NCBI GenBank assembly: GCA_025999455.1
Contig: AP024683.1
Location: forward strand, 2,520,451-2,544,450
Source: Geminicoccaceae bacterium
GTDB lineage: Bacteria; Pseudomonadota; Alphaproteobacteria; Geminicoccales; Geminicoccaceae
Length of the DNA stretch: 24,000 nucleotides
Reading direction: 5' to 3'
Shown here: one piece after another, positions 2,717 to 20,034 of the stretch
Layout of the letters: each line of letters starts with the position of its first letter
Numbering within the stretch: position 1 is the stretch's first letter
Made by a program: the position numbers and the translations under genes
Notes under the pieces: model-generated
What the model was told of the DNA's origin: nothing
Databases searched by the model: none
Seen by the model: the letters and a program-made list of their open reading frames with translations, nothing else

Positions 2717-3396
2717 GCCGCGCCCGGTCGATCGACGGCGGCGAGGAAGAGCTCGGCGGGCTCGTCGAGGCGCAAGCGCGCGAGGTCTTGCGCGCCTACG
2801 AGCGGATCGCGCCGATCTACGACCTCCTGGACGGCCTCTACGAGTGGAGCTGGAAGCGACGCCTTCGGGCCGAGCTCTTCGCCCACGCCTTGCCGGGCCG
2901 CCTCCTCGACGTTGGCGTCGGCACCGGCTGCAACATGCCCTTCTATCCGAAGGACGCCGAGATCGTCGGGATCGATGCGAGCCCGGCCATGCTCGAGCGC
3001 GCGCGGACCCGCGCCCGCCGGCTCGGCCGAACGGTCGAGCTCCGGCGGATGAACCTCCTGGAGCTCGCCTTCCCGGACGGCGCGTTCGACACGGTCGTCG
3101 CGACCTTCGTGCTGCTCTGCCTGCCGGACGAGCTGCAGCTCCCGGCCTTGCGCGAGCTCGCCCGCGTGACCCGGCCGGGCGGGCGGATCCTGCTCCTCGA
3201 CTATCACCGCTCCTCGCGGACCGCGGTGCGGTGGTGGATGCGGCTCCTCTCGGCCTGGCTGCGCTGGGCTTTCGCCGCCCGGTTCGACCCGACGACCGAG
3301 CAGCATCTGGCCGAGGCCGGGCTGCGGCCGCTCGTCCGGGCGCAGCGCATGGGCGACGGCGTCACGCTCCTCGTTCTCGAGCCCGACGCCCGATGA
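2713..3396 (+). CDS. class I SAM-dependent methyltransferase (Methyltransf_11/UbiE-like)
   Basis: SAM-binding motif I 'LLDVGVGTGCN', then 'IVGIDASPAML', 'FDTVVATFVLLCLPD', 'RPGGRILLLD'. TTG 2713 overlaps the desaturase stop TGA 2714-2716 (cTTGA), implying coupling. The upstream part of the 642-aa ORF is spurious. Confidence 0.8.
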   Translation: MSRARSIDGGEEELGGLVEAQAREVLRAYERIAPIYDLLDGLYEWSWKRRLRAELFAHALPGRLLDVGVGTGCNMPFYPKDAEIVGIDASPAMLERARTRARRLGRTVELRRMNLLELAFPDGAFDTVVATFVLLCLPDELQLPALRELARVTRPGGRILLLDYHRSSRTAVRWWMRLLSAWLRWAFAARFDPTTEQHLAEAGLRPLVRAQRMGDGVTLLVLEPDAR

Positions 3397-3400
3397 CGAA

Positions 3401-3422
3401 ACGGCGGCCCCGAGGCCGCCGT
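3401..3422. terminator. candidate bidirectional hairpin terminator between convergent genes
   Basis: Perfect 9-bp stem ACGGCGGCC (3401-3409) / GGCCGCCGT (3414-3422) with loop CCGA. It lies between the methyltransferase stop (3396) and the minus-strand SMP-30 gene stop (3452). Flanking T-tracts are weak (cccgttct, and ttcgtc on the other strand). Confidence 0.45.
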
Positions 3423-3451
3423 CCCGTTCTCGCCTCCTCGATGGCGCGCGC

Positions 3452-4591: not shown

Positions 4592-4749
4592 GAGGCCGTC
4601 CTCCCTGTCGTGATCCCCCGATCGGGTCGGACGAACCCCTTCGCGCGGCCGCTCGCCGCCACGTCTTTCGCCTCCCCGATCGCGAGGATCTTAAGCTGCC
4701 GTCATGCGCGCGCAACGCCAGCGCACGCGGGTCCGATCCGCGTCGCGCG

Positions 4750-7700
4750 CTATTCCGCGGCGAGGGCTACCGGCTCGCGCGCCCGCCAGCGGTCGAGGAG
4801 CCGGGCCCAGCGCTCCCGCACCCGGGCGAGGTTCGCTTCCTTGACGTGGCCGAAGCCGCGGATCCCCTCGGGCAGGCTCGCGAGCTCGACCGCGAGCGGC
4901 AACCGCTCGGCCGAGAGACCTTCGAGGACCTCGTCCAAAAGCGCTTCGTACGCGCCGATGAGCGCCCGCTCCGTGCGCCGTTCGGCCGTCCAGCCGAACG
5001 GATCGAAGATCGTGCCGCGCAGCCGCCTGGCCTTCGCGAGCCAGCGGAAGGCGGTCATCGCCCAGGGCCCGTAGCGGCGCTTGCGCAGATGCCCGCTCGT
5101 CGGGTCGCGCTCGGCCAGAAGCGGCGGGGCGAGATGGAATTCGAGCCGGCCCCAGCGCTCGAACTCGCGGACCAATTGGGCGCGGAACGCGTCGCCCGAC
5201 ATGAGCCGCGCGACCTCGTACTCGTCCTTGTAGGCCATGAGCTTGAAGAGGTTCTTCGCGACCGCGAGGGTGAGCGCCTCGCTCCCCGGGGCGACCCGCC
5301 GCTCGGCCTCGCGCACCCTTTCCACGGTCCGGCGATAGCGCTCGGCCCAGGCGGCGTCCTGATAGTCGGTCAAGAAGGCCATCCGGTCGGCGATCGTCTC
5401 CTCGAGCGAGAGGGGCCTGCGCCGCTCGGCCAGGCCCGCGATCCGCCGCACCGCATCCAGGTCGAAGGCGGCCCGCCGGCCCCAGAGGAAGGCGCGCTTG
5501 TTGAAGTCGACGGCCACCCCGTTGATCTCGATCGCGCGCAGGATCGCCGCCTCGGAGAGCGGCAAGAGCCCCTTCTGCCAAGCGTAGCCCACGAGGAGGA
5601 GGTTGGCGCCGATCGCGTCCCCCAGAAGGGCGGTCGCGAGCCGGCTCGCCTCGACGAGCTCGACGTTGTCGGGACCTGCCGCCTCTTCGAGCGTGCGGCG
5701 GAGTTGGGCCGCGGGAAAGGCGAGGTCGGGTTCGCGGGTGAAGGCGCCGGTGAGCACTTCCTCGCTGTTGGCGACGATCCGCGTAAGACCCTTGGCGACG
5801 GTCGGCAGCGCGGTGCGGCCGGCCGCGACTAAAAGATCGCAGCCCAAGACGAGCCGTGCTCCGCCCGGTGCGACCCGGGGCGCTCCCACGCTCTCGGGCG
5901 TGGGCGCGATCTTCAAATGGGTCACGACCGCCCCGCCCTTCTGGGCGAGGCCGATCATGTCGAGGGCGACGAAGCCCTTGCCCTCGAGATGGGCCGCCAT
6001 GCCGAGGAGGGCCGCGATCGTGACGACGCCCGTGCCGCCGATCCCGGTCACGACGATCCCGTAGGCCCGCTCGAGCGCCGGCAGCGCGGGCTCCGGGAGC
6101 ACCGGGAACGGCACGTCACGGGCGCCGACGGCGGCTCTTTTCGGGACCGCCCCCTTCACGCTCACGAAGGACGGGCAGAAGCCCTTGATGCAGGAGAAGT
6201 CCTTGTTGCAGGCGGATTGGTCGATCCGTCGCTTGCGACCGTATTCGGTCTCGACCGGCTGGATCGCCACGCAGTTCGACTGCACACCGCAATCGCCGCA
6301 GCCCTCGCAGACGAGCTCGTTGACGACGACCCGCTCGTCCGGATCGGGGAACTGGCCGCGCTTCCTGCGCCGCCGCTTCTCCGCGGCGCAGGTCTGGTCG
6401 TAGACGATCGCGGTGACGCCTTCGATCTCGCGCATGCGCCTCTGCACCACGTCGAGCTCGTCGCGGTGGTGGACTGTCACGCCCGGCGCGAAGCCCGAGG
6501 GGATCGGGTATTTCTCCGGCTCGTCGGTGACGACCGCGATCGCCTTCACGCCCTCGGCCTCGAGCAGCCGGGTGATCTGCGGCACGGTCAGGTTCGCGGT
6601 CTCCATCTTCTGACCGCCGGTCATGGCGACCGCGTCGTTGTAGAGGATCTTGAAGGTGACGTTGGCGCCAGAGGCGACCGCCGCGCGCACGGCGAGCGAG
6701 CCCGAATGGTAGAAGGTGCCGTCGCCGACGTTCTGGAAGACGTGCGGTCGGGTGGTGAAGGGCGCCTGGCCGATCCAGGATGCCCCCTCGCCGCCCATCT
6801 GGGTCCAGCCCAGCGTGTCGCGGCCCATCCAGGTCACCATGAAGTGGCAGCCGATGCCGGCGACCGCGCGCGAGCCCTCGGGCACTTTCGTCGAGCTGTT
6901 GTGCGGGCAGCCCGGGCAGAACCAGGGCAGGCGCACGAGCCCGGCCGCGGCCTGCGGGAGTGCGGCGCGGCGGACGCGGAGCTCCTCCACCCTGGCGGCG
7001 AGGGCCGGGTCGCCCGTGCGTTCGAGGAGCCGCTCACCGAGCGCGATCGCGATCTGCAGCGGCTCGAGCTGGCCCCAGGAGGGGAAGAGCGTCTCGCCGC
7101 GCTCGTCGCGCTTGCCGAGGACGAGCGGCCGTTCGCGCAGATCGTAGAGGATTTCCTTGGCCTGGCTCTCGATCAGGCCGCGCTTTTCCTCGACGACGAG
7201 CAGGAGCTCGCTGCCGCGGACCGCCTCGCGCAGCGCTTCGGGCTCGAGCGGGAAGGTGAGCCCGACCTTGTAGACGGCGAGCCCGAGCCGGCGGGCGCGT
7301 GCCTCGTCGATGCCGAGCTCGTCGAGCGCGACGACCACGTCCTGCCAGGATTTGCCCGTGGTCGCCACGACGAGCCGCGCACCCGGCTCGCCGAGCACGA
7401 TGCGGTCGAGCCGGTTGGCCCGGGCGAAGAGCCGGGTCGCCTGCATCCGCACCGTGTGCAGCCGCCGTTCGACTTCGAGCGCCATGGGCGGCCAGGGCAT
7501 CTCGGGCGGGATCTCGACGTGCCGGCGGATCGGCGGGAGGAGCGACGCGTCGGGCAGGACGATCCGCGGCCGGTCGGGGGCGACCGCGATCGAGGCCGTG
7601 CTCTCGACCGTATCGTGGATGCACTTCAAGGCGACCCAGGCGCCGGAAAAGCGCGAGAGCGCGATCCCCAGAAGACCGTATTCGAGGATCTCCTGCACGC

Positions 7701-8226
7701 CCGAGGGGTTGAGGACCGGCACCATGGCATCGACCATGGCGTATTCGGATTGGTGCGCGGTCGTGCTCGATTCGCAGATGTGATCGTCGCCCAAGAGCAA
7801 GAGCACGCCACCCTTGGGATCGGTGCCGAACAGATTGCCGTGGCGGATCGCGTCGCCCGAGCGGTCGACACCGGGCCCCTTGCCGTACCAGATCGCGAAG
7901 ACGCCGTCGAAGCGCCCCTCGCCGGTGAGGTTCACCTGTTGGGTGCCCTGGCAGGCGGTCGCGGCCAGATCCTCGTTGACCGCCGGTTGGTGGACGACGT
8001 CGTGGGCGGCGAGGAGCGCCTTGGCCGCGGCGAGCTGTTGGTCGTAGCCGCCGAGCGGCGAGCCGCGATAGCCCGTGACGTAGCCTGCCGTCCTGAGCCC
8101 GGCGCGGCGGTCGCGACGCACCTGCTCGAGCGGCAAGCGGACGAGCGCCTGCACGCCCGTGAGGTAGATGCGGCCCTCCTCGAGCCGGTACTTGTCGTCG
8201 AGCGAGACGGAGAGGAGCTGCGTCAC
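4750..8226 (-). CDS. indolepyruvate:ferredoxin oxidoreductase family protein (fused IorA/IorB type 2-oxoacid oxidoreductase)
   Basis: 1158-aa ORF with GTG start at 8226. N-terminus 'LSVSLDDKYRLEEGRIYLTGVQALVRLPL'. TPP motif 'GDGTFYHSG'. Ferredoxin-like cluster 'CEGCGDCGVQSNC'. C-terminal gamma-like domain 'GIVVTGIGGTGVVT'. Confidence 0.9.
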   Translation of the reverse strand: MTQLLSVSLDDKYRLEEGRIYLTGVQALVRLPLEQVRRDRRAGLRTAGYVTGYRGSPLGGYDQQLAAAKALLAAHDVVHQPAVNEDLAATACQGTQQVNLTGEGRFDGVFAIWYGKGPGVDRSGDAIRHGNLFGTDPKGGVLLLLGDDHICESSTTAHQSEYAMVDAMVPVLNPSGVQEILEYGLLGIALSRFSGAWVALKCIHDTVESTASIAVAPDRPRIVLPDASLLPPIRRHVEIPPEMPWPPMALEVERRLHTVRMQATRLFARANRLDRIVLGEPGARLVVATTGKSWQDVVVALDELGIDEARARRLGLAVYKVGLTFPLEPEALREAVRGSELLLVVEEKRGLIESQAKEILYDLRERPLVLGKRDERGETLFPSWGQLEPLQIAIALGERLLERTGDPALAARVEELRVRRAALPQAAAGLVRLPWFCPGCPHNSSTKVPEGSRAVAGIGCHFMVTWMGRDTLGWTQMGGEGASWIGQAPFTTRPHVFQNVGDGTFYHSGSLAVRAAVASGANVTFKILYNDAVAMTGGQKMETANLTVPQITRLLEAEGVKAIAVVTDEPEKYPIPSGFAPGVTVHHRDELDVVQRRMREIEGVTAIVYDQTCAAEKRRRRKRGQFPDPDERVVVNELVCEGCGDCGVQSNCVAIQPVETEYGRKRRIDQSACNKDFSCIKGFCPSFVSVKGAVPKRAAVGARDVPFPVLPEPALPALERAYGIVVTGIGGTGVVTIAALLGMAAHLEGKGFVALDMIGLAQKGGAVVTHLKIAPTPESVGAPRVAPGGARLVLGCDLLVAAGRTALPTVAKGLTRIVANSEEVLTGAFTREPDLAFPAAQLRRTLEEAAGPDNVELVEASRLATALLGDAIGANLLLVGYAWQKGLLPLSEAAILRAIEINGVAVDFNKRAFLWGRRAAFDLDAVRRIAGLAERRRPLSLEETIADRMAFLTDYQDAAWAERYRRTVERVREAERRVAPGSEALTLAVAKNLFKLMAYKDEYEVARLMSGDAFRAQLVREFERWGRLEFHLAPPLLAERDPTSGHLRKRRYGPWAMTAFRWLAKARRLRGTIFDPFGWTAERRTERALIGAYEALLDEVLEGLSAERLPLAVELASLPEGIRGFGHVKEANLARVRERWARLLDRWRAREPVALAAE

Positions 8227-8379
8227 GTCGGCCTCGATTCCTGATCCGCGGGCGCCTTAGCACGAGATGGTGGCGCGGTCAGGCGCGGGCGAGCCGTGCT
8301 CGGTGCGCGTGCCACCGCACGAGGCGCATGGCCGAGCTGTGGCATCCGTGCTACAGGTGCGGTGACCCGGAGGTGGCCC

Positions 8380-8871: not shown

Positions 8872-9762
8872 TCAGCGCGGGCTTTCGCCCAACAGGATCC
8901 GCCGGAACGCCTGGGCCGGCGGCGGCAGCCGACGATGGGCGCGGTAGACGAGGTACCAGACCCGGAGGATCGGGAAGCCCTCGACCGGTAGGACGACGAG
9001 CCGACCGGTGGCAAGCTCGAGCTCCACCGTCTGGGCCGAGATCACGGCGAGACCGAGGCCGGCCTGGACGGCCTGTTTGACCGCCTCGTTCGTCTCGAAC
9101 ACGCAGGAGGTTTCGAAGCCGAGCCCGTGGGCGGCGAAGAGCCGCTCCATCGCCGCTCGGGTCCCGGAGCCTTGTTCGCGGACGACGAGCGGCTCCCGCA
9201 CGAGCCGGGCGAGCGGGATCGGCGCCCGGGCCAGGAGCGGATGGCCGGGCGGGGCGATGACGACGAGCGGGTTGTCCTTGAACCGCTGGGCCACGAGCTC
9301 GGCGTCCTCGGACGGCCGGCCGGTCACCGCGAGATCGGCCTCGCCGGCTTCGAGGGCGGCGAGCACGCTGTCGCGATTGGCCACCTGCAGTGCCACGGCG
9401 ATGCCGGGATATTGGCGGCGATAGGTGGCGAGGATGGGGGCGAGGAAATAGTTCGCGGTCGACACGACGGCGAGCCGCAAGACGCCGCGCTCGAGACCGC
9501 GCATCTGCCCGGCCGCCTCCTCGAGATCGGCCGTCGCCTGGACGATCCGGCGGGCATGCTCGGCGAGCTCGCGACCGGCCGGGGTCAAGACGATCCGCCG
9601 CCCGATCCGCTCGAGGAGCGGCAGGCCGAGGCTCTCCTCGAGATGGCGGACCGACATCGACACCGCCGGCTGCGTGAGATGCAGCTCCTGAGCGGCGCGG
9701 GTGATCGAGCCGTGCCGAGCGACCGCGTCGAGGACCCGGATCTGGCGGAAATCCGGCGGCAT
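8872..9762 (-). CDS. cbbR: LysR-family transcriptional regulator CbbR
   Basis: HTH 'IRVLDAVARHGSITRAAQELHLTQPAVSMSVRHLEESLGLPLLER' plus a LysR substrate-binding domain. Divergent from cbbL across 137 bp. Start taken as the internal ATG 9762 ('MPPDFRQIRVL'), which gives the usual position of the HTH. The ORF-track start at 9870 would extend into the AT-rich intergenic region. Confidence 0.85.
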   Translation of the reverse strand: MPPDFRQIRVLDAVARHGSITRAAQELHLTQPAVSMSVRHLEESLGLPLLERIGRRIVLTPAGRELAEHARRIVQATADLEEAAGQMRGLERGVLRLAVVSTANYFLAPILATYRRQYPGIAVALQVANRDSVLAALEAGEADLAVTGRPSEDAELVAQRFKDNPLVVIAPPGHPLLARAPIPLARLVREPLVVREQGSGTRAAMERLFAAHGLGFETSCVFETNEAVKQAVQAGLGLAVISAQTVELELATGRLVVLPVEGFPILRVWYLVYRAHRRLPPPAQAFRRILLGESPR

Positions 9763-9899
9763 GGACGATGGATAAACCGGCCTTATGTTAGCTGCAACGA
9801 ATTCTGATTGGTCCGGCGCCGCGCCGGGCGCTACCAGCTTCGCCGAGCGAAGTTCGACAAGAGCCCGCATGGGCGGGCCGGAGCGAGGCGGAGGGTGCG
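9763..9899. promoter_or_regulatory. cbbR-cbbL divergent control region with LysR-type T-N11-A box
   Basis: The only AT-enriched stretch in the window. ATAAACCGGCCTTAT (9772-9786) has inverted arms ATAA/TTAT and contains T-N11-A (TAAACCGGCCTTA). GGAGGG (9890-9895) precedes the cbbL GTG at 9900. No confident -35/-10 could be assigned. Confidence 0.45.
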
Positions 9900-11321
9900 G
9901 TGGCCCCCAAGGCGTACGAAGCTGGCGTCAAAGATTACGCGAAGACCTATTGGGTTCCCGACTACGTCCCGCTCGACACGGACATCCTCGCGATCTTCAA
10001 GGTCGTGCCGCAGCCGGGCGTGCCGCGCGAAGAAGCCGCGGCGGCGGTCTGCGCCGAATCGTCGACCGGTACGTGGACGACGGTGTGGACCGACCTCCTC
10101 ACCGATCTCGATTATTACAAGGGACGCGCCTACCGGATCGAGCCGGTGCCGGGCGATCCGAACGCGTTCTACGCCTACGTCGCCTATCCGATCGACCTCT
10201 TCGAAGAGGGCTCGGTCGTCAACGTCCTCACCTCGCTCGCCGGTAACGTCTTCGGCTTCAAGGCGGTGCGCAGCCTGCGACTCGAGGACGTGCGCTTCCC
10301 CCTCGCCTACGTGAAGACCTGCGGCGGGCCGCCCAACGGCATCCAGGTCGAGCGCGATCGGCTCAACAAATACGGCCGGCCGCTGCTCGGCTGCACGATC
10401 AAGCCGAAGCTCGGGCTTTCGGCCAAGAACTACGGACGCGCGGTCTACGAAGCGCTCCGCGGTGGTCTCGACTTCACCAAGGACGACGAGAACGTCAACA
10501 GCCAGCCCTTCATGCGCTGGCAGCACCGCTTCGAGTTCGTCATGGAAGCGGTCCGCAAGGCCGAAGAAGAGACGGGCGAGAAGAAGGGGCATTATCTCAA
10601 CGTCACCGCGCCCACGCCCGAGGAGATGTACAAGCGCGCCGAGTTCGCCAAGCAGCTCGGCTCGCGGATCATCATGCACGACTTCTTGACGGCGGGCTTC
10701 ACCGCACATACCGGGCTCGCCAATTGGTGCCGTGAAAACGGAATGTTGTTGCACGTGCACCGGGCGATGCACGCGGTGATCGACCGCAATCCCCTGCACG
10801 GCATCCATTTCCGCGTGCTCGCCAAATGCTTGCGCCTTTCCGGTGGTGACCATCTCCACTCCGGCACGGTCGTGGGCAAGCTCGAGGGCGACCGCGAGGC
10901 GACGCTCGGCTGGATCGACCTCATGCGCGAGCCCTACGTCCCCGAGAACCGCGCCCGCGGCATCTTCTTCGAGCAGGATTGGGGCTCGATGCCCGGGATG
11001 TTCCCGGTCGCCTCGGGCGGCATCCACGTCTGGCACGTCCCCGCGCTCGTCACGATCTTCGGCGACGACTCGATCCTCCAGTTCGGCGGCGGCACGCTCG
11101 GCCATCCTTGGGGCAACGCCGCCGGCGCGCACGCCAACCGCGTCGCGCTCGAGGCCTGCATCGAAGCCCGCAACCAGGGCCGCCAGGTCGAGCGCGAGGG
11201 CCGCGACATCCTCATGGAAGCCGCCAAGCACAGCCCGGAGCTCGCGATCGCGCTCGAGACCTGGAAGGAGGTCAAGTTCGAGTTCGACGTGGTCGACAAG
11301 CTCGACGTGCAGCGCGCCTGA
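9900..11321 (+). CDS. cbbL: RuBisCO large subunit, form IA (green-type, carboxysomal)
   Basis: 473 aa. '[19 protein letters not shown]' (carbamylated Lys), '[13 protein letters not shown]', '[10 protein letters not shown]', '[15 protein letters not shown]', '[11 protein letters not shown]', '[14 protein letters not shown]'. N-terminus '[17 protein letters not shown]' and C-terminus '[16 protein letters not shown]' match form IA. GTG start. Confidence 0.97.
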
Positions 11322-11360
11322 GGCCCATCGACGAGCGGTTGCTGAGCAGGAGATCGAGTC

Positions 11361-11699
11361 GTGCCGGAGATGCAAGCTTACGGGGCGGGTAAACAACGCT
11401 TCGAGACGTTCTCCTACCTGCCGCAGATGACGCCCGAGCGGATCACCAAGCAGGTGACGTACCTGATCAATCAAGGTTGGACACCGGCGATCGAACATTG
11501 TGAACCCGAGCGAGCGCATCTTACCTATTGGTACATGTGGAAATTGCCGATGTTCGGAGTTTATTCGGTCGAGAAAGTCCTCGCCGAAGCCGAAGCTTGC
11601 CACCGCGCCCATCCTGGCCATCTCGTGCGGCTCGTGGGCTACGACAATTTCAGCCAGTCGCAGGGTACCGCTTTCGTCGTCTATCGCGGCGGGCGTTGA
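11361..11699 (+). CDS. cbbS: RuBisCO small subunit (form IA)
   Basis: 112 aa. '[15 protein letters not shown]', 'GWTPAIEH', '[11 protein letters not shown]', 'VRLVGYDN', 'FVVYRG'. AGGAG lies 8 nt upstream of GTG 11361. Confidence 0.95.
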
Positions 11700-11727
11700 G
11701 ATCGTCGGTGCGGGGGAGGCCTTGGTG

Positions 11728-13686
11728 ATGAGTGCCGGAGCGATCGTGCCGACCGGCCGCGCGGCGTCGATGGAGCGTCGCCGGGCGCTCTCGCAAGGTA
11801 AACGCGCTCTTCCACCGCCTCGGGAGCGGGTGCGGACCGGCTTCCGCGAGGCCGCATTGCCGACCGTCGACGCCCGTCCCACCTCGCAACCCGTGAGCGC
11901 GCCCACGGTCTTGGCCGCGTCCGTGGCGACGGCGGTGTCGGTTCCGGTCGCGGTCGGCCGCCGGGCCTCGATGCTGCGCCGTCAGGCCCTCGTGCGCGGC
12001 AAGTCGGCGCTCGTTCCCGACGGCGCCGCGACCTCCTCGTCCGTACGCAACGGCTCCGCTCCCTCCCCCGATCGTGGGAAGATCGAAATCCTGCCGCCCG
12101 AGCGTGGCGAGGAGGAGAACTGCACCTCCTGCCGGGCCATCGCCAAAGCTCGCCGCGCCGAGCTCGCGCGCTTCGGGCGTGGCTCGGCCGAGCAATCGAA
12201 CGGGAGCAACGCCCATCGCCTGCGCTACGCTCCCAAGGTCGTGGCCGTGACGACCGAGGGCGAGCAGCGTGTCACGGGCATCCGGATCGGCCACGCGGCA
12301 CGCGTCACCGGCGTCGAGGCGGGGCTCGGTAAGCCGATCTCCGGTACACCCTACATCGGCCCGGACGAGGGGGCGACGACCCGCGGCACCGCACCCAAAG
12401 TCGGCGTGGCGCGCACCGAGGGGGGGCAGATCGTCTCCGGAACCCTCGTGCGCAGCCGGGTCGCGATCACGGGTGACGAAGCGGGTGCGCGGATCAAGAT
12501 CACGGGCGAAGTCGACCCGCGTCCGGACGACGACCTCACCCCGCGCGAGCGCGTGAGCGGGTTCGGACTGGCCCAGTTCCAGCGGCAAGCCGACCCGCAC
12601 GGTCACTCGGTGTTCGGGACCAATCTCGGCCGGTCGGCGCGGATCGTGGGCTCGCGATCGCGCGACCGCGAAAGGCCCGTCGAGGTGACGCTCGGTGGCC
12701 AGCCGGTGACGGGTACCGCGGTCGGGCGCAGCCCGAGGGTGACCGGTGACGAACCGGGCTCCTGTCGGATGCTGACCGGTACGCAATACCTCGCCCCCGC
12801 GCGCGCCGTCCTCGCCTGTGCGCCGGACGGGCAGGCCGATGGCGCGCTGTTGCCGCGACCGGACCCGGTGACCGGCGGCAAGGTGCGCGAGGCGCTCACC
12901 TGGCGGGGTCAGCGCGTCACCGGTCCGGAGTTCGAACAGGAAGAGCTCGTCACCGGGACCGAGCCCGGGACTTGCAGCCCCGTCACCGGCACCCCCTATC
13001 AGGGCCCGATCTCGGTCGCCCGTTGGTGCGCGCCGCGCACGGCCGGTGCGATCGCGCAGCGCCTCGTCCGCAACGGCCCCGTGCGGATCACGGGCGACGT
13101 GCCGCTGAGCGCACCCGAACGGGTGAGCGGGATCGAGCGCGGCGCCGACCGGTTCGTGAGCGGCACGCCTTATTACGAGGTCCCCGCTCTTCCCGCACCG
13201 AACGGTGAGACACCGGCCCTGCCCGCGCCGAGCGGCTTCTCGATCACGACACCGCACCGCCAGGCGATGCTCGAGGCCCCCGAACGAGCGGCGCGGCGAC
13301 CCAAGATCACGGGCTCCTTCGCGATCGGCGAGGGCAAGGTCACGGGCCATCTCGACTTCGGCTTCCGCCCGCGGCTCCTCGTTTCCGACAATCCCGGCCA
13401 CCGTGTCGGCGAGCGTCCGCGGATCACGGGCGAAGGCCGGACTCAGGGTTTCCGCATCACGGGTGACGCTTGGCGCGACGATCCGCGCGTGACCGGCACC
13501 GAGGGGACGAGTGCCGCGGTGCGCAATCCGAGCGAACGCGACGGCGAGCGCAAGACCTTCGCCCACAGCTCCGTCTTCAAGAGCAAAGGTAAGGACGAGC
13601 CGCCGCGCAAGCTCGTCACCGGTGTGATCGGCTGGACGCCGAAGTCCGCCGCGATCGTGACGCTCTCGGGCGGGGCGCAGGGATGA
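11728..13686 (+). CDS. csoS2: carboxysome scaffold protein CsoS2
   Basis: 652 aa from ATG 11728 (GGAGG at 11714-11718). Three basic N-terminal RuBisCO-binding-type motifs: 'GRAASMERRRALSQGKRAL', 'GRRASMLRRQALVRGKSAL', 'CRAIAKARRAELARFGRGS'. The middle and C-terminal regions are full of V(T/S)G triads ('RVTGIRIG', 'RVTGVEAG', 'ISGTPYIG', 'RVTGDEPGSC', 'PVTGTPYQG', 'ITGEGR', 'RITGDAW', 'RVTGTEG'). Lies immediately after cbbS. Confidence 0.9.
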   Translation: MSAGAIVPTGRAASMERRRALSQGKRALPPPRERVRTGFREAALPTVDARPTSQPVSAPTVLAASVATAVSVPVAVGRRASMLRRQALVRGKSALVPDGAATSSSVRNGSAPSPDRGKIEILPPERGEEENCTSCRAIAKARRAELARFGRGSAEQSNGSNAHRLRYAPKVVAVTTEGEQRVTGIRIGHAARVTGVEAGLGKPISGTPYIGPDEGATTRGTAPKVGVARTEGGQIVSGTLVRSRVAITGDEAGARIKITGEVDPRPDDDLTPRERVSGFGLAQFQRQADPHGHSVFGTNLGRSARIVGSRSRDRERPVEVTLGGQPVTGTAVGRSPRVTGDEPGSCRMLTGTQYLAPARAVLACAPDGQADGALLPRPDPVTGGKVREALTWRGQRVTGPEFEQEELVTGTEPGTCSPVTGTPYQGPISVARWCAPRTAGAIAQRLVRNGPVRITGDVPLSAPERVSGIERGADRFVSGTPYYEVPALPAPNGETPALPAPSGFSITTPHRQAMLEAPERAARRPKITGSFAIGEGKVTGHLDFGFRPRLLVSDNPGHRVGERPRITGEGRTQGFRITGDAWRDDPRVTGTEGTSAAVRNPSERDGERKTFAHSSVFKSKGKDEPPRKLVTGVIGWTPKSAAIVTLSGGAQG

Positions 13687-15242
13687 CGGCACCGATCCCG
13701 CTCGGACGCCCGGGCGCGTTCGGCCGGAGCCGGTTCCGGCCCGCTTCGCGGCCCGTCGCCCCGGTCGCTCCACGCATCCGGTCCGTCGCGAACGGGCGGG
13801 CGCCGCTGTTCGCCCCGAGCGGCCATCCGCTCGCCGAGCCCGCGATCAGCGCCGCCCTCGCCCGCCGCGCCGAGGAGATCGATCGAGCCTTCGCGGCGAT
13901 CGAGCCGGTGCTCGTCACGCTCGCCCCGCGCCAGTTCGAGCCGGGCTTCGCCGAGCGGGCCGCGGCCGAGATCGCGAGCGTGCTCGGGGTCGGCGTCGAG
14001 CCGGCGCGCCTCGAGGCCACGTGGAACCGGCCGCTCGACATGGTGGCCCTCCAGGCGAGCCTCGTCCTCCGCACGTTCGCCCGGCTCGTCGAACGCACCG
14101 CCGCGCGGCCGCCCGCGGTCGAGGAGGGGGAGCCCGTGGCGGAGGTCGTCCGCCGCTTCGGCTTCCACGGGGTCGACGTCTCGACCTGCGCCGACGGCAG
14201 GCTCGGCGGGCTGCTCGACCACGTGCTGCGGGTCCCGCCGGCGATCGTCGTCGCCCGCAAATCCTTCGCGGGGGCGATGTTCGACGTCGAGGAGGCGATC
14301 GCCCGGTTCGAGCGCGTCGAGCTCGGCCGCTGGCGCGAGGGTCGCCCGAACCCGGCGAGCGAGCCGACCCGCTATCTGAAGCTCGGCGTCTACCATTTCT
14401 CGAGTCTCGACCCGCAGCACGAGGGCTGCGCCGCGCACGGCAGCGACGAGCGGCGGGCCGCCGCCGCGCTGCTCGCTCGGCTCCACGACTTCGCCGAAGC
14501 CGTGGCGCGACGGCACGGTGAAGCTACGCGGCCGGCGATCTTGCTCGTGGGCGTCGACACCGACACCGATTCGATCCGGGTCCACGTGCCGGATCCGGCC
14601 GGGGAGATCGATCTCGACCGGTACCTGTCGAGCGCCGAGCTGCACGCCGCGACCCGCGAGCTTTCGCGCGAGGCGGCCAAGGAGGAGATCCGCCGGCGCG
14701 TGGCCGCGTCGATCGGGGTCGCCCCGGACGATCCCGCGACCGAGGGGATGCGCTGGTTCTGCGGGTATCTCTTGAAGAACAACATCGCCCAGGTCGAGGC
14801 GGTGCTCGCCCGCTTCGGCGGTCCCTATCCCGACCGCGGCCACGAGGAGCGGCTCGTCGTCGTGGGCGACCCGATCGACGACGTCCAGCTCCGCAACCTC
14901 GCCTTCCAGGCGCAGATGCGCTCGATCGAAGAGGGCGAAGGTGACCTCGCGGTCGGCATCCGGATCTTGGGCGAACGGCTGGCACCGGCCGGGCTCGCGG
15001 TGCCGATCCTGGTGCTGCGGACCTTCGAGGGCGGCCTGCCCGGAGCGGCCGATCGCGCCGCGGAACGGGCACAGCTCATGCGGCGGGCCGTCGAGCGACG
15101 CTTTTCCGGCACGGGCAGCGCGCCGCGGATCCTGGTCGAGGCCGCGATCCGCGCGGCCGAAGGCGGGTCGCTCCGCTTCCTGTCGCGTGACGTGGTCCGG
15201 GCGAACGGGTGCTCTTGCGCTCAGCGAGAGGGGATCGGATGA
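13683..15242 (+). CDS. csoS3: carboxysome shell carbonic anhydrase CsoSCA (CsoS3)
   Basis: 519 aa. ATG overlaps the csoS2 stop (ATGA 13683-13686). Zinc/catalytic motifs 'STCADGRLGG' (CxDxR; Cys codon 14187-14189) and 'YHFSSLDPQHEGCAAHGSD'. Canonical position after csoS2. Confidence 0.9.
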   Translation: MTAPIPLGRPGAFGRSRFRPASRPVAPVAPRIRSVANGRAPLFAPSGHPLAEPAISAALARRAEEIDRAFAAIEPVLVTLAPRQFEPGFAERAAAEIASVLGVGVEPARLEATWNRPLDMVALQASLVLRTFARLVERTAARPPAVEEGEPVAEVVRRFGFHGVDVSTCADGRLGGLLDHVLRVPPAIVVARKSFAGAMFDVEEAIARFERVELGRWREGRPNPASEPTRYLKLGVYHFSSLDPQHEGCAAHGSDERRAAAALLARLHDFAEAVARRHGEATRPAILLVGVDTDTDSIRVHVPDPAGEIDLDRYLSSAELHAATRELSREAAKEEIRRRVAASIGVAPDDPATEGMRWFCGYLLKNNIAQVEAVLARFGGPYPDRGHEERLVVVGDPIDDVQLRNLAFQAQMRSIEEGEGDLAVGIRILGERLAPAGLAVPILVLRTFEGGLPGAADRAAERAQLMRRAVERRFSGTGSAPRILVEAAIRAAEGGSLRFLSRDVVRANGCSCAQREGIG

Positions 15243-15523
15243 AGATCTTCCAAGTCGAGCGGACGTTGGTCGCGACCGCGCGCATCAGCCAACTCGAGAA
15301 CCGGCGGCTCCTCGTCGTCAAGGAGCGCGGCGGCGGTCGCCAGGTCGCGGTCGACCCGGTCGGCTGCAAGCCGGGTGACTGGGTCATCGCGGTGGGCAGT
15401 TCGGCGGCCAAGGACGCCGCCGGTCACAAGGACTATCCGAGCGATCTGACGATCGTCGGCATCATCGACTACTGGGAAGAAACACCGCCGACGACGCCGG
15501 CCCGGGTCAAGGAGTTCGCCTGA
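15239..15523 (+). CDS. csoS4A: carboxysome vertex pentamer protein CsoS4A (EutN/CcmL family)
   Basis: 94 aa, 'MKIFQVERTLVATARI...VAVDPVGCKPGDWVIAVGSSAA...LTIVGIIDYW'. ATGA overlap with the csoS3 stop (15239-15242). Confidence 0.9.
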   Translation: MKIFQVERTLVATARISQLENRRLLVVKERGGGRQVAVDPVGCKPGDWVIAVGSSAAKDAAGHKDYPSDLTIVGIIDYWEETPPTTPARVKEFA

Positions 15524-15783
15524 TGCACATCCACCGGGTCGTCCGCGATCTCGTGACCACGAAGCGTCTCGGCACCTTGCAGGCCAAGAAGCTCAAGGTG
15601 CTGGTCGACGCCAAGGGCGAGTACGACGTCGCGGTCGATCCGATCGGCTGCAAGCCCGGCGATTACGTCATCAGCATCGGCTATTCGGCGGCGCGCATCG
15701 CCGCGGGCGATCCGCGCATCACGACCGATCTCACGATCGGCGGCATCATCGACCACTGGAGCGAGGAAGAGTGGCGAAGGTGA
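15523..15783 (+). CDS. csoS4B: carboxysome vertex pentamer protein CsoS4B (EutN/CcmL family)
   Basis: 86 aa, 'VAVDPIGCKPGDYVISIGYSAA...LTIGGIIDHW'. TGATG overlap with csoS4A (15521-15525). Confidence 0.9.
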   Translation: MHIHRVVRDLVTTKRLGTLQAKKLKVLVDAKGEYDVAVDPIGCKPGDYVISIGYSAARIAAGDPRITTDLTIGGIIDHWSEEEWRR

Positions 15784-15848
15784 CCGATCCGCCGGCGCCC
15801 GCGGGGCCGCCGGCCGAAATCCAGCGGAGCGAGGAAAAGGAGCGAACC

Positions 15849-16148
15849 ATGGCCAGCGAGAGAACCGGCATCGCCTTGGGGATGATCGAGACGCGCGGGC
15901 TCGTCCCGGCAATCGAGGCGGCCGATGCCATGACCAAGGCTTCGGAAGTGCGGCTCATCTGCCGCCAGTTCGTGGGCGGCGGCTACGTCACGGTGATGGT
16001 CCGCGGTGAGACGGGTGCGGTCAACGCCGCGGTCCGGGCCGGGGCGGACGCTTGCGAGCGGGTCGGTGACGGTCTCGCCGCCGCGCACATCATCGCCCGC
16101 CCGCACGCCGAGGTCGAGCAGATCCTTCCGACCACGCCCACGCTTTGA
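15849..16148 (+). CDS. csoS1: carboxysome major shell hexamer protein CsoS1 (BMC-H), copy 1
   Basis: 99 aa from ATG 15849 (AAGGAG 6 nt upstream). 'GIALGMIETRGLVPAIEAADAMTKASEVRLI...GGGYVTVMVRGETGAVNAAVRAGA' is the BMC domain. The ORF-track start at 15771 adds a non-conserved Pro/Ala leader that copy 2 lacks. Confidence 0.92.
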   Translation: MASERTGIALGMIETRGLVPAIEAADAMTKASEVRLICRQFVGGGYVTVMVRGETGAVNAAVRAGADACERVGDGLAAAHIIARPHAEVEQILPTTPTL

Positions 16149-16190
16149 GGAGGGTCGGTCGCATCGTTCGCGAACGGGGGAAAGCTCTCG

Positions 16191-16535
16191 ATGGCTACGA
16201 GCGAAAGGAACGGTATCGCTTTGGGGATGATCGAGACGCGCGGGCTCGTCCCGGCGATCGAGGCGGCCGATGCCATGACCAAGGCTTCGGAGGTGCGGCT
16301 CATCTGCCGCCAGTTCGTGGGCGGCGGCTACGTCACGGTGATGGTCCGCGGTGAGACGGGTGCGGTCAACGCCGCGGTCCGGGCCGGGGCGGACGCCTGC
16401 GAGCGGGTCGGCGACGGCCTCGCTGCGGCGCACATCATCGCCCGCCCGCACCCCGAGGTCGAGCAGATCCTGCCCAAGAGCCCGACGCTCGACGGCGGCG
16501 GTCGCGACAGCGAGGTGACCGGCATCCGCAGCTGA
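16191..16535 (+). CDS. csoS1: carboxysome major shell hexamer protein CsoS1 (BMC-H), copy 2, with about 15-aa C-terminal tail
   Basis: 114 aa. BMC domain is identical to copy 1 except 'HPEV' in place of 'HAEV'. Extra tail 'LDGGGRDSEVTGIRS'. Confidence 0.92.
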   Translation: MATSERNGIALGMIETRGLVPAIEAADAMTKASEVRLICRQFVGGGYVTVMVRGETGAVNAAVRAGADACERVGDGLAAAHIIARPHPEVEQILPKSPTLDGGGRDSEVTGIRS

Positions 16536-16539
16536 GACG

Positions 16540-16569
16540 GGAGCGGTCGGCCTCCGGGCCGACCGCTCC
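16540..16569 (+). promoter_or_regulatory. intercistronic GC-rich stem-loop after the shell genes
   Basis: Perfect 13-bp stem GGAGCGGTCGGCC (16540-16552) / GGCCGACCGCTCC (16557-16569) with loop TCCG. It starts 5 nt after the csoS1 stop. No U-tract follows. The next gene's GGAGG (16579-16583) and ATG (16590) follow. Confidence 0.6.
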
Positions 16570-16589
16570 GCGCGACGGGGAGGGGCCCC

Positions 16590-16859
16590 ATGGCGACGAG
16601 TGACGAGCCCGAGGGCTGGGAACGGATCGGCCGCAACCGATCCCTCTTCCGGCGGTTCGAGTTCAGCGCCTACAGCGAGACGCGGCTCTTCTTGGAGCGG
16701 CTCGCGGCCCTCTCGGAGCGGACCGGCATCCATCCCGATCTGAGCTTCGGGCCGAAGCACGCCAACGTCACCGTGCACGGCGCTCGAGGCGAGCCGGGTG
16801 CCGAGGAGGTGGCCTTCGCTCGCGAGGCCACCCGGCTAGCCCGGCCCGACGAGCCGTGA
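16590..16859 (+). CDS. pterin-4a-carbinolamine dehydratase-like protein (acRAF-type alpha-carboxysome RuBisCO assembly factor)
   Basis: 89 aa PCD/DCoH fold pattern 'FEFSAYSETRLFLERLAALSERTGIHPDLSF...ANVTVH'. The PCD catalytic 'HHP' reads 'IHP' and the later 'THD' is lost, as expected for the non-catalytic carboxysome-associated PCD-like proteins. Location directly after csoS1 is typical. Confidence 0.78.
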   Translation: MATSDEPEGWERIGRNRSLFRRFEFSAYSETRLFLERLAALSERTGIHPDLSFGPKHANVTVHGARGEPGAEEVAFAREATRLARPDEP

Positions 16860-17758
16860 ACCGCGTCGCACCGCTCGAGGTCGCCGTCGCGGTCGTCCGT
16901 GACGGCGCCGGGCGGGTGCTCGTGGCGGAGCGGACACCGCGACAGATCGCGGGCGGCTATTGGGAGTTGCCCGGCGGCAAGATCGAGGCCGGGGAGACGC
17001 CGGAGCAGGCCGCGCGCCGTGAACTCTTCGAGGAAGCGGGGTTGCGCGCCGAAATCCTGCGTCCTTGGATCTCCTACGACTACGCGTTCCCCACGCGGTC
17101 CGTCCGGCTCCACATTTTCTCGGTCGAGCGCTATTCGGGCACGCCCGAAGGGCGCGAGGGCAACCGGCTCGCCTGGGTCGATCCGGCGCGGCCCGCGGTC
17201 GGCCCGATCCTCCCCTCCAATCGACGCGCCTTCGCCTTGTTGGCGCTGCCGTCGGTCTTCGTGCGGGTGTGTCCCGGCGACGCCGCGCTCGCCGCGGTCC
17301 GCGGTTTCGAGCCCGGCGAGGGTCTCCTCCTCGGTCGGAGCGGTAGTCCCGGCCAACGTGTGCAAACCGCCCGGCGGCTCGCGGCCGGTGGGGCTCGGGT
17401 CCTCCTCGAGGGTACGCCGCTCGAGGCGATCCAAGCGGGTGCGAGCGGGCTCGTGAGCCCCTGGCCGGAGTGGCACCGCTTCGCCGGCCGGCCGCCGGTC
17501 GATCTCTGGGCGGTTCGGTGCGCCGGGCCGGCCGAGCTCGACCTGGCCGCCCGGCTCGACGCCGACTTCGGGATCCTTCCCTCGGCCGCGGCCCGCGACT
17601 TGGCGCCACCGGGGGCTCCCTTGCCCGTCTTCCTCGAAGGTACGGATCTGCGATCGGTCGAGCGCGCCCGCGCCCTCGGCGTGTTCGGTGTGGTCCTCGA
17701 CGGAACCGCTCCGGCGACCGCCCGGAGCGTCGGCGATTGGCAGGAATCCAGGCGATGA
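16856..17758 (+). CDS. Nudix hydrolase (MutT-like) fused to a TenI/ThiE-like C-terminal domain
   Basis: 300 aa. Intact Nudix box 'GGKIEAGETPEQAARRELFEEAGL' (Gx5Ex7REUxEExGU). The C-terminal 170 aa or so follows the layout of the MutT-TMP-synthase-like fusions of proteobacteria (linker 'LPSVFVRVCPG', 'DADFGILPSAA', 'PVFLEGT'). GTG 16856 overlaps the acRAF stop (GTGA), and the stop overlaps the SulP ATG (ATGA). Confidence 0.8.
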   Translation: MNRVAPLEVAVAVVRDGAGRVLVAERTPRQIAGGYWELPGGKIEAGETPEQAARRELFEEAGLRAEILRPWISYDYAFPTRSVRLHIFSVERYSGTPEGREGNRLAWVDPARPAVGPILPSNRRAFALLALPSVFVRVCPGDAALAAVRGFEPGEGLLLGRSGSPGQRVQTARRLAAGGARVLLEGTPLEAIQAGASGLVSPWPEWHRFAGRPPVDLWAVRCAGPAELDLAARLDADFGILPSAAARDLAPPGAPLPVFLEGTDLRSVERARALGVFGVVLDGTAPATARSVGDWQESRR

Positions 17759-20034
17759 GCGACGGAACCGTCACGGCCGTCCGCCGCACCGCGCTCGAGC
17801 TGCCCGCGAGCGGCCTCGCCGGGCTCAAACATTGGCGCTACGATCTCGTGGCCGGGCTGCAGGTGGCGCTCCTTTGGACGCCCTTCTCGCTCGGTGTCGC
17901 CCTCGCTTCCGGTGCGCCCGCGGTCGCCGGACTCATTTCGGCGATCGTCGCCGGGCTGTTGTTCCCGTTCCTGGGCGGCTCGCACGTCACGGTCAGCGGG
18001 CCGGCCGCCGCCCTCGCACCCATGGTGCTCTGGGGTATCCTGACCTTGGGTCACGGCGACCTCGCCGCCGGTTACCCGCTCGTGCTCGTGGCGATCGTGC
18101 TCACCGGTGTGCTGCAGATCGTCTTGAGCCTGTTCCGCGCCGGCCAGTATGCGGCGCTCCTGCCGACGACGGTGGTCGAAGGGATGCTGGCGGCGATCGG
18201 AATCATCATCATCGTCCGCCAGATCCCACCGCTTCTGGGCGCCGAATCGGTCGCCGCCAAATCGGTCCTCGTCGCGATCCTCGCGCTCCCCCAGCAGCTC
18301 GCGACCGCGAAGCCCGTGATCGCCCTCGTCGGCATCACGAGCCTCGCGCTCATGTTCTTGTTGAATCTGCGCTCGAGCGGCTTCTGGAAGCGGGTGCCGG
18401 CGGCCATCATCGTCACCGTCTTCGGTATCGCCGTGGGCTTCCTGCTCGATCTCGACGCGAGCCTGCGGATCCGGATGCCCGAGAGCTTCCTCGACGCGCT
18501 GCATCTGCCGGACTTCGCCGGTATGCTCGCCCGCCCCGACCTCTGGGGCTCGCTCTTGATCGTGGTCGTGACCTTCACGTTGATCGACGGGGTGGAATCG
18601 GTCGCGAGCGTCAAGGCCGTCGACCGGCTCGATCCGTGGCGGCGCGTCTCCGACCCGAACAAGACCTTGCGCGCCATGGGCGTGTGCAACCTCTGCTCGG
18701 GCATGCTCGGCGGGCTCACGATCATCCCGAACGCCGTGCCCTCGCGGGCCAACATCGACGCCGGCGCCCGCACGCTCTGGTCGAACCTCTTCAGCGGGCT
18801 CTTCCTTTTGCTGTTCACCCTCGCCCTGCCCTGGTTGCTCGCCCGCATCCCGCTCGCCTCGATCGCCGGCGTGCTCGTCTACATAGGTTGGCGGCTGTGC
18901 GAGCCCGCCCTCTTCGCCCGGATGCGCGCGCTGGGGCTCGATCGGTTCATCGTCTTCGTCGGCACCGTGGTCGCGATCTTGATGACCGACCTCCTGGTCG
19001 GGATGCTCGTCGGCATCGCGATCGAGCTCCTCCTGCTCGTCTATCTCTTGATGCCGTCCTTCCGCTACGTGCTCACCGGCCGGCTCGAGCTCGGCACGGC
19101 GATGGGCCTCCTCGCCCGCAACTTCGCCGGCCTCTTCAAGAGCCCGATCATCAAGGCGCGGGTCGAGGGTGACGGCCCGGATCGCCAGCACGTGCTGACG
19201 ATGGGCTCGCTCGTCGGCTTCAACCTCCTGCCCTTCGAGAAGACGGTGAAGGCGATCCCGCCGCGCGAGCCGCTCACGCTCCGTTTCACCGAGTCGGCGC
19301 GGATCGTCGACCACACGGCGGTCGAGTTCCTCCAGCATCTCGAAGAGGAATCCGCGACCGCCGATCGCCGGTTCACGATCGAGGGGCTCGAGAGCTTCTT
19401 CCGCTTCTCGTCGCACCCGGCCGCGACCCGCATGCAGGACACCCGGATCGGCCAAGTGCGTGCCGAATGCGACGCGCGCGCCCGCGAGATGGCCGAACTC
19501 GCCGCCCGCCTCGGCCTCGCCTTCGAGGGCGAGACACGCGCCACGATCAACCGCTGGGATTTCATCTATCTGCGCCGCGGCGAGCAGCGGCAGGACACCA
19601 ACGTGCTCACCGGCCCCTGGGGCGGCGGCCGGATCCGCATCGTCGATTACGGCCACACGGCCGCGCCCGACTATCACGTGGTCCACCGCCACACGCTCTT
19701 GATCTTCGAGCCGGCCGAGGGTGCCGCGCGCGAGCCCGATCTCGTGATCACGCCGGGCCACTACATGGAGCGCTACATGACGCTCCTCGAGGAACGGCCG
19801 GTCGCCGCTCTGCCCCCGCCGCACCGGCTCTACCTCGCCCCGGGGCTCCCGGCCGAGGCGGTCGCGATCCCGCCCGCCTGGCGGAGTGCGCTCGCGGAGC
19901 TCGGTCCGCTCTACCTCGAGCGGCGGCGCGGCTCGCTCCTCGTCTTCGCCCCGTTCCGGGCGCTCGAGCCGGTCGAGCGGATCGAAGCCCTCGCCCGCGC
20001 CTTCCGCGCCGAGCGCGAGGCCGCCGCGGCCTGA
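17755..20034 (+). CDS. SulP/SLC26-family anion transporter with STAS-like domain and about 200-aa uncharacterised C-terminal extension (candidate bicarbonate transporter)
   Basis: 759 aa from ATG 17755. SulP core: 'DLVAGLQVALLWTPFSLGVALASGAP', 'GGSHVTVSGPAAALAPMV', 'LIDGVESVASVKAVD', 'NLCSGMLGGLTIIPNAVPSRANIDAGART'. STAS-like segment at about residues 465-560 ('LTLRFTESARIVDHTAVEFLQHL'). Residues from about 563 to 759 (19441-20031) match nothing I recognise. The longer 854-aa ORF start at 17470 is out-of-frame overlap with the Nudix gene. Confidence 0.85.
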   Translation: MSDGTVTAVRRTALELPASGLAGLKHWRYDLVAGLQVALLWTPFSLGVALASGAPAVAGLISAIVAGLLFPFLGGSHVTVSGPAAALAPMVLWGILTLGHGDLAAGYPLVLVAIVLTGVLQIVLSLFRAGQYAALLPTTVVEGMLAAIGIIIIVRQIPPLLGAESVAAKSVLVAILALPQQLATAKPVIALVGITSLALMFLLNLRSSGFWKRVPAAIIVTVFGIAVGFLLDLDASLRIRMPESFLDALHLPDFAGMLARPDLWGSLLIVVVTFTLIDGVESVASVKAVDRLDPWRRVSDPNKTLRAMGVCNLCSGMLGGLTIIPNAVPSRANIDAGARTLWSNLFSGLFLLLFTLALPWLLARIPLASIAGVLVYIGWRLCEPALFARMRALGLDRFIVFVGTVVAILMTDLLVGMLVGIAIELLLLVYLLMPSFRYVLTGRLELGTAMGLLARNFAGLFKSPIIKARVEGDGPDRQHVLTMGSLVGFNLLPFEKTVKAIPPREPLTLRFTESARIVDHTAVEFLQHLEEESATADRRFTIEGLESFFRFSSHPAATRMQDTRIGQVRAECDARAREMAELAARLGLAFEGETRATINRWDFIYLRRGEQRQDTNVLTGPWGGGRIRIVDYGHTAAPDYHVVHRHTLLIFEPAEGAAREPDLVITPGHYMERYMTLLEERPVAALPPPHRLYLAPGLPAEAVAIPPAWRSALAELGPLYLERRRGSLLVFAPFRALEPVERIEALARAFRAEREAAAA

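Follow-up and report, generated by a model that had tools for sequence, protein, structure and literature searches.

The stretch of DNA analysed here, 24,000 nucleotides of a Geminicoccaceae bacterium genome (contig AP024683.1) that we call the window, carries on its forward strand a complete alpha-carboxysome operon whose last gene encodes a SulP/SLC26 transporter with an additional C-terminal domain, hereafter the extension. The operon, identified by Pfam matches and open reading frames (ORFs), runs in the order cbbL, cbbS (11361-11699), csoS2, csoSCA, csoS4A, csoS4B, two csoS1 genes and a pterin-4a-dehydratase-like gene (together 9900-16859), continues with a NUDIX-family gene and is closed by the SulP gene, after which rpe and cbbX lie in convergent orientation. 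The closest relatives are metagenome-assembled genomes (MAGs) of Geminicoccaceae (Alphaproteobacteria) with the same gene order, as in the related loci L007 and L008. The SulP gene (17755-20034, forward strand) is complete, as judged from its translation, its full-length homologues and an AlphaFold model (pLDDT 88.3), and reads from an ATG at 17755 to a stop codon at 20032-20034, giving a protein of 759 aa. Its start overlaps, as ATGA, the stop codon (17756-17758) of the NUDIX-family gene (16856-17758, forward strand; Pfam NUDIX, E 7.4e-23; PRK08999-like in NCBIfam, under the cut-off). An earlier note on this DNA, written from its letters alone, had described the same ORF and the same overlap, and both are borne out by translation and sequence.

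The protein falls into four parts. The membrane transport domain (residues ~20-460, 17812-19134) matches the Pfam family Sulfate_transp (PF00916) at residues 29-394 (E 1.9e-51, 175.5 bits against a cut-off of 23.2), and both its AlphaFold model and Foldseek comparisons show the 14-helix, 7+7 inverted-repeat fold of SLC26 proteins, which a profile match to the PDB also indicates. Behind it lies a compact, STAS-like domain (residues ~461-545, 19135-19389) that has no Pfam STAS match and was assigned from modelled secondary structure and from Foldseek, where the alignments to full-length SLC26 structures with a STAS domain cover 534-616 columns. Its modelled strands (465-471, 478-483, 507-511 and 540-543) and helices (488-500 and 520-535) form a beta-beta-alpha-beta-alpha-beta unit at residues 465-543, a STAS-like fold of very divergent sequence. 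A linker (residues ~546-572, 19390-19470), in which the pLDDT falls below 50 at residues 564-571, then leads to the extension (residues ~573-759, 19471-20031), a TtfA/DUF3137-like alpha/beta domain assigned by AlphaFold, Foldseek, hhalign and Ka/Ks analysis. Because the full-length model (pLDDT 88.3, pTM 0.80) shows the STAS unit, the linker and a separate domain from ~574 to 758, the domain boundaries drawn in the earlier note were about right. That the pTM reaches 0.80 despite a flexible linker suggests, as far as a predicted model can, that the extension docks on the remainder of the protein in a defined way.

The extension is as unrecognised by domain libraries as the earlier note had proposed for its roughly 200 residues beyond the STAS domain. 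Residues 516-759 have no Pfam match even at E<=1 with the STAS and beta-carbonic-anhydrase models included, and no NCBIfam model matches the extension; the sulP, BicA and DauA models of NCBIfam cover the membrane part only and score far under their cut-offs. It is nevertheless strongly conserved. Among the best 120 full-protein homologues, which share 49-92% identity with the window protein, all but one truncated entry are 720-840 aa long and cover 95-100% of the query. In the alignment of these 121 sequences, 22 positions of the extension are invariant. Invariant residues of the protein's C-terminal part include N599, Y605, R608, G609, D631, Y632, H634, P638 and T647 as well as P667, G668, Y670, R673, Y674, Y720, E722 and F731, and conservation runs to the C-terminus. 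When compared with three Geminicoccaceae orthologues, the extension has Ka/Ks values of 0.18-0.23, next to 0.16-0.27 for the STAS domain and 0.09-0.16 for the membrane domain, and is thus under purifying selection. Taking one genome per species, a SulP membrane domain precedes the extension on the same strand in 70 of the 70 loci with enough upstream sequence, and the DNA of the window can be aligned with that of its Geminicoccaceae relative L007 across the entire SulP gene, with the ATGA overlap kept and a mean column identity of 92% over the aligned stretch. These two results exclude an assembly error or a pair of separate genes, the explanation that the earlier note had named as one that would overturn its proposal. 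The region past the STAS domain (residues ~573-759) contains a real, folded and conserved cytoplasmic module that lies outside current domain libraries.

Modelled alone, with the 120 homologues as alignment, the extension reaches a pLDDT of 94.2 and a pTM of 0.89 in AlphaFold; it begins with a long helix, continues with an antiparallel sheet built from long hairpins and with a short helix, and ends in a C-terminal helix. Its only significant structural neighbour in the PDB by Foldseek is TtfA (6T84; E 1.8e-4, probability 1.0), with TM scores of 0.56 (TMq) and 0.64 (TMt) over 189 columns at 15% identity; the next match has an E-value of 0.22. Sequence searches of the PDB with profiles built from the extension and from the stand-alone family described below did not find 6t84 at E<=10 and returned chance matches only (an NADase, CobT and mNeonGreen, all at E>=0.009), and none of the solved SLC26 proteins in the Foldseek comparisons has anything like the extension. 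TtfA (trehalose-monomycolate transport factor A, MSMEG_0736/Rv0383c) combines a cytoplasmic domain with a transmembrane helix at its N-terminus, had no recognisable domains, binds MmpL3 and is needed for trehalose-monomycolate transport (PMC6593404). Like the extension, it is a membrane-held cytoplasmic domain, and it works with a transporter. However, TtfA is encoded separately and brings its own transmembrane anchor, whereas the extension is fused behind a STAS domain and lacks an anchor; and while TtfA partners an RND lipid transporter in mycolate-producing Actinobacteria, the hosts of the extension are Proteobacteria.

When the extension alone was used for an exhaustive profile search, 655 representatives came up at E<=1e-3, but only 41 at E<=1e-10. 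The top matches are SulP fusions or fragments thereof; below them comes a large set of proteins of 215-240 aa that are matched across nearly the whole domain. These stand-alone relatives, typically of ~220 aa, begin with a transmembrane helix, behind which the domain lies, and are labelled in their sources as hypothetical proteins of Kiritimatiellia, Omnitrophota and others. By hhalign, the extension alignment matches an alignment of 50 stand-alone proteins with 99.7% probability (E 5e-27, 180 columns, from extension position 24). The extension itself has no Pfam match to DUF3137 (PF11335) at E<=1, but 11 of the 50 stand-alone relatives have weak DUF3137 matches, and two tandem-domain relatives, P0151 and P0157, pass the DUF3137 cut-off (39.4 and 34.1 bits) and are found by the extension profile at E 4.6e-12 and E 2.8e-11, respectively. 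In P0157 the stretch matched by the extension profile includes the DUF3137 region, and in P0151 it lies within the repeat unit that also holds the DUF3137 match. Given the hhalign result and the profile matches to DUF3137 proteins, we conclude that the extension belongs, as a divergent member, to a DUF3137/TtfA-like group of cytoplasmic domains close to the membrane. Two giant repeat proteins that ranked high against the extension profile (P0142 and P0148) were set aside as spurious, their scores being made up of many sub-threshold repeats over positions 44-93 only. A word-indexed search with the extension alone returned two fragments only and, with a pre-filter that evidently misses long fusions, carries no information on stand-alone relatives.

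DUF3137 (PF11335) and the related anchored proteins of ~220 aa share the motifs RG..R...N..G and FDYxYT with the extension, which differs from them in lacking an N-terminal anchor and in having His/Arg-rich motifs of its own. The genes of the uncharacterised DUF3137 members often adjoin LemA genes instead of transporters. In loci L089-L093, the genes of stand-alone DUF3137-like homologues form tandem arrays of two or three paralogues, with a LemA-family gene after them.

Two motifs mark the SulP-fused proteins. The first, D631-Y-x-H634-T-x-x-P638-D639-Y640-x-x-x-H644-R645-H646-T647 (19645-19695), lies on a beta-hairpin and is invariant or nearly so in four alignments; the second, T666-P667-G668-H-Y670-x-E-R673-Y674 (19750-19776), has P667, G668, Y670, R673 and Y674 invariant in 120 sequences. 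In the stand-alone family, which has the consensus FDYxYTTGxGK...THxQTV, other residues stand in place of the three histidines H634, H644 and H646, and as far as the alignments tell, only the SulP-fused clade has the His-rich motifs (H634, H644, H646 and TPGHYxERY). The H-x-H that is conserved on a beta-strand, with further invariant His, Asp and Tyr residues confined to this clade, is what one might expect if the extension had a catalytic role, perhaps as a new metal-dependent domain of a carbonic-anhydrase-like or CO2-hydrating kind, analogous to that of the SulP-beta-carbonic anhydrase proteins. Such fusions, of which Rv3273 of M. tuberculosis is an example, have ~760 aa and an extra C-terminal cytoplasmic domain, and are thought to handle bicarbonate; they are reportedly an established architecture (Felce & Saier 2004). 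The window SulP resembles them in length, but the appended fold is unrelated and neither a beta-carbonic anhydrase domain nor its motifs are present. The earlier note had already held that the extension is not a carbonic anhydrase, and the Pfam comparison of residues 516-759 at E<=1, which found no carbonic anhydrase domain, leads us to reject that identity as well. Some JGI records (P0008, P0031, P0033, P0040 and P0045) name members of the subfamily ‘carbonic anhydrase’, with no carbonic anhydrase domain detectable in them; these names were probably carried over from orthology groups of SulP-carbonic anhydrase fusions. In addition, H634 should not neighbour H644 and H646, by an estimate from the hairpin register made without coordinates, the operon already has CsoSCA, and a cytoplasmic carbonic anhydrase would short-circuit the CO2-concentrating mechanism. 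We therefore consider a catalytic extension most improbable.

A scan of species-representative genomes for the second motif gave 100 relatives among 185,579 species genomes, so that the extension marks a SulP subfamily in about 100 species. The novel module of the earlier note thus stands as a real, folded and conserved domain, but it is subfamily-wide, has relatives in a wider superfamily of membrane-anchored proteins that overlaps DUF3137, and shares the TtfA fold. The hosts are nearly all chemolithoautotrophic Proteobacteria (Geminicoccaceae, Hydrogenophaga, Rhodocyclaceae, Tepidimonas, Thiobacillus, Thioalkalivibrio, Nitrosomonas, Gallionellaceae, Chromatiales and Thiotrichaceae). One contig with a SulP-extension gene (contig_6555; L032 / L003) comes from a MAG labelled ‘uncultured Halobacteria archaeon’ and is probably mis-binned, since its gene content (CHASE/PAS histidine kinases and a DEAD helicase) looks bacterial.

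For genomic context we kept 80 extension-bearing loci, of which 31 have flanks of 8 kb or more to either side. Two or more cso genes lie within 10 kb in 30 of the 80 loci and in 22 of the 31 (71%) well-flanked ones. Homologues at 65%, 63% and 51% identity open a cso operon, close one or directly follow its last gene. The SulP-extension gene closes the operon in the window and in L004, lies directly 3' of its last gene in L002, and comes first, between cbbR and cbbL, in L001 and L013. In other loci it has a divergently oriented cbbR behind it, or is encoded by the opposite strand. The carboxysome link of the earlier note is thereby extended, and because it holds far beyond the window and in at least three arrangements, a transporter of dissolved inorganic carbon (DIC) is the most economical reading of the gene. 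Two further observations concern L002 (Polaromonas sp. SLM_MC1B_02-E07). A gene call of 833 aa at 2946-5447, between cbbS and csoSCA, has AAA, AAA_lid_6 and CsoS2_M matches and is either a fusion of a CbbX-like ATPase with CsoS2 or a merged gene call, and a second, conventional SulP-STAS gene (12428-14509, 693 aa) directly follows the SulP-extension gene.

The strength of this linkage also bears on whether the extension could be a docking module that tethers the transporter to the carboxysome shell, RuBisCO or CsoSCA and so channels imported bicarbonate, and TtfA, its only structural relative, acts by protein-protein contact with its transporter. The extension is, however, unlike known carboxysome-targeting peptides and CsoS2-like or RuBisCO-binding motifs and has no Pfam match, and to our knowledge carboxysomes are not attached to membranes. 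Homologous stand-alone proteins occur in non-autotrophs (Kiritimatiellia and Omnitrophota), and the ancestral function of the domain is therefore unrelated to carboxysomes. Tethering thus appears quite unlikely to us.

Clustering of neighbouring genes without prior selection identified an SbtA-family gene (Pfam Sbt_1, E 3.5e-113) directly after the SulP-extension gene in 21 of the 80 loci, at a median distance of 155 bp and nearly always on the same strand (for example L059, 10814-11845, forward strand). These 21 loci fall among L005-L084; the window has no SbtA gene. Where both are present, the two genes look like a tandem pair of putative DIC transporters. NUDIX genes are the other recurrent neighbours. 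A MutT-like NUDIX gene with an extra C-terminal part of ~170 aa lies upstream of SulP in 11 of the 80 loci (L005, L007, L008, L014, L016, L019-L021, L023, L024 and L079), as does the one overlapping the SulP start in the window; a non-orthologous NUDIX gene (~190 aa) is divergent ~350 bp upstream in another arrangement, seen in 10 of the 80 (for example L069, 7143-7721, reverse strand); and among the stand-alone homologues, P0152 has a NUDIX gene upstream that overlaps its own (L085, 4448-5014). These three arrangements would fit an extension that senses a nucleotide or nucleoside-diphosphate-X signal set by the neighbouring hydrolase, much as SbtB senses nucleotides for SbtA. Yet 59 of the 80 SulP-extension loci have no NUDIX gene, the extension shows no nucleotide-binding motif or fold match (the Foldseek rows for ADP-ribose pyrophosphatases have E>1 and TM<0.2), and a NUDIX neighbour was found in only one of six independent stand-alone contexts, on which ground we rejected a NUDIX partnership as a general rule. 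We hold a nucleotide-sensing role to be very unlikely. The earlier note had suggested that the extension might sense a carbon-status metabolite or tether the transporter to carboxysomes, and neither idea finds support in the evidence assembled here.

As for the transported substrate, the best solved relative of the family profile is the membrane domain of BicA (6ki1, E 1.6e-38, compared with 1e-26 for the fumarate transporter SLC26Dg), and Foldseek with the full model gives a TMt of 0.88 with a root-mean-square deviation of 2.9 for BicA 6ki1 and a TMt of 0.83 for SLC26Dg. BicA, the cyanobacterial Na+/HCO3- symporter (6KI1, 6KI2), shares the 14-helix 7+7 fold, a cytoplasmic domain that is STAS-like at least in the window SulP, and the setting of a carboxysome CO2-concentrating mechanism with the window SulP, but the two are only ~25% identical and BicA ends after its STAS domain (~564 aa), where the window SulP adds a domain of 190 residues. 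A possible parallel, whether or not it carries the extension, is SulP-CS of Thiomicrospira pelophila, likewise a SulP protein beside an alpha-carboxysome locus in a proteobacterial autotroph, which rescues carbonic-anhydrase-free E. coli and accumulates DIC (PMC12628692). Among the best 80 extension-bearing loci, none is from Thiomicrospira or Hydrogenovibrio.

Several results weigh against reading the protein as a carboxysome-associated inorganic-carbon transporter with a TtfA/DUF3137-like accessory domain. The NCBIfam BicA model (NF050096) gives 141.4 bits against a cut-off of 880, over the membrane part only. The substrate and Na+ site of BicA comprises T69, D258, T262, G300, A301 and T302 (PMC13249358), and of these T69 aligns to A84 and G300-A301-T302 to P325-N326-A327, while D258 and T262 can plausibly be paired with D278 and S282 (an Asp/Ser pair in TM8), but only after a shift of the alignment by two residues; because the TM3 and TM10 residues differ, a BicA-like bicarbonate site is not conserved. 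Of the 31 well-flanked loci, 9 have no cso genes nearby. The likeness to TtfA is structural only (15% identity and a TM score of ~0.6). The substrate, the regulatory role and the ligand site are all inferred.

Some of the same results would suit a transporter of another anion, such as sulfate, sulfate exported after thiosulfate oxidation, or some other oxyanion, whose adjacency to carboxysome genes would reflect co-regulation with autotrophic growth and whose extension would still be an accessory domain. SulP substrates are diverse, many of the hosts are sulfur oxidisers, the TM3 and TM10 residues of the BicA site are not conserved, the sulP, BicA and DauA models of NCBIfam all score far under their cut-offs, and there are the nine well-flanked loci with no cso genes. 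But the subfamily is also found in ammonia, hydrogen and iron oxidisers (Nitrosomonas, Hydrogenophaga and Gallionellaceae), its cso linkage has been retained through several rearrangements, an SbtA bicarbonate transporter gene lies directly downstream in 21 of the 80 loci, and the closest solved relative is BicA. We regard another anion as unlikely. The earlier note's candidate DIC transporter remains the most economical reading of the cso linkage, with bicarbonate as its presumptive substrate in spite of the altered BicA site; reviews hold that more biochemistry is required before bicarbonate carriers can be predicted among SulP proteins (PMC10880623).

With the observed architecture, conservation, fold, superfamily link and genomic linkage in hand, we consider it probable, if only slightly so, that the protein serves the carboxysome as an inorganic-carbon transporter and has, built into it, a TtfA/DUF3137-like domain with an accessory or regulatory role. 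It is an SLC26/SulP secondary anion transporter with a membrane domain closest to that of BicA, and most likely imports bicarbonate for the alpha-carboxysome encoded by its operon. Its STAS-like domain is minimal, and a flexible linker of ~10 residues connects it to the 190-residue TtfA/DUF3137-like alpha/beta domain. In other members of the superfamily an N-terminal transmembrane helix keeps the domain at the membrane's cytoplasmic face, whereas in the SulP subfamily it has become permanently fused in cis; TtfA, the only protein with this fold to have been studied, binds MmpL3 in trans. By analogy with TtfA and the anchored stand-alone relatives, the extension would lie under the membrane, next to the STAS and transport domains, and may assist or regulate the transporter dimer by stabilising or gating it. 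A putative ligand may bind at the His/Arg/Tyr/Asp cluster of the subfamily (D631-Y-x-H634, D639-Y640, H644-R645-H646-T647 and P667-G-H-Y-x-E-R673-Y674), a suggestion drawn from residue conservation. A bolder proposal, which we put forward tentatively and think doubtful, is that the TtfA/DUF3137-like fold is a general cytoplasmic module for assisting or gating transporters, recruited independently in trans to MmpL3 and in cis to SLC26, and acting here as a ligand-responsive switch; conceivable ligands would then be bicarbonate, a metabolite of the Calvin cycle, or a nucleotide on which the neighbouring NUDIX enzyme acts.

The remaining features of the window bear on annotation. A divergent LysR-type, CbbR-like regulator gene (8872-9870, reverse strand; Pfam HTH_1 and LysR_substrate) precedes the operon, and a LysR gene is found in 40 of the 80 related loci. 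The cbbS gene (112 aa) is overlapped by the listed csoS2 ORF of 728 aa (11500-13686), and the real csoS2 start must therefore lie downstream of ~11700. At 4750-8244 two long ORFs overlap on opposite strands (775 aa on the forward strand and 1158 aa on the reverse), with no Pfam match for the 775-aa ORF.

Since carboxysome-linked SulP transporters were already known, this is not a new kind of system; the new part is a distinct, previously unremarked SulP variant with a new domain. We found no description of a SulP protein with such an extension in the literature open to searching, in Pfam or in NCBIfam, and one candidate publication (PMC4050266) was rejected, as it overlapped only in words beginning with ‘sulph’.

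The DIC transporters of non-cyanobacterial autotrophs are poorly characterised. The two short motifs described here identify a subfamily that tracks alpha-carboxysome loci across Alpha-, Beta- and Gammaproteobacteria and can serve as a marker, and its members are candidates for engineering CO2-concentrating mechanisms. The extension would also provide the first functional context for the TtfA fold outside mycobacteria and a first hint of function for DUF3137-like proteins, in an experimentally tractable setting, and the fusion of a TtfA-like domain in cis makes a clean truncation test possible. The interest would be greater if the extension proved to be a ligand-responsive switch for DIC uptake: it would then represent post-translational control of inorganic-carbon uptake in chemolithoautotrophs, a counterpart of SbtB for SbtA.

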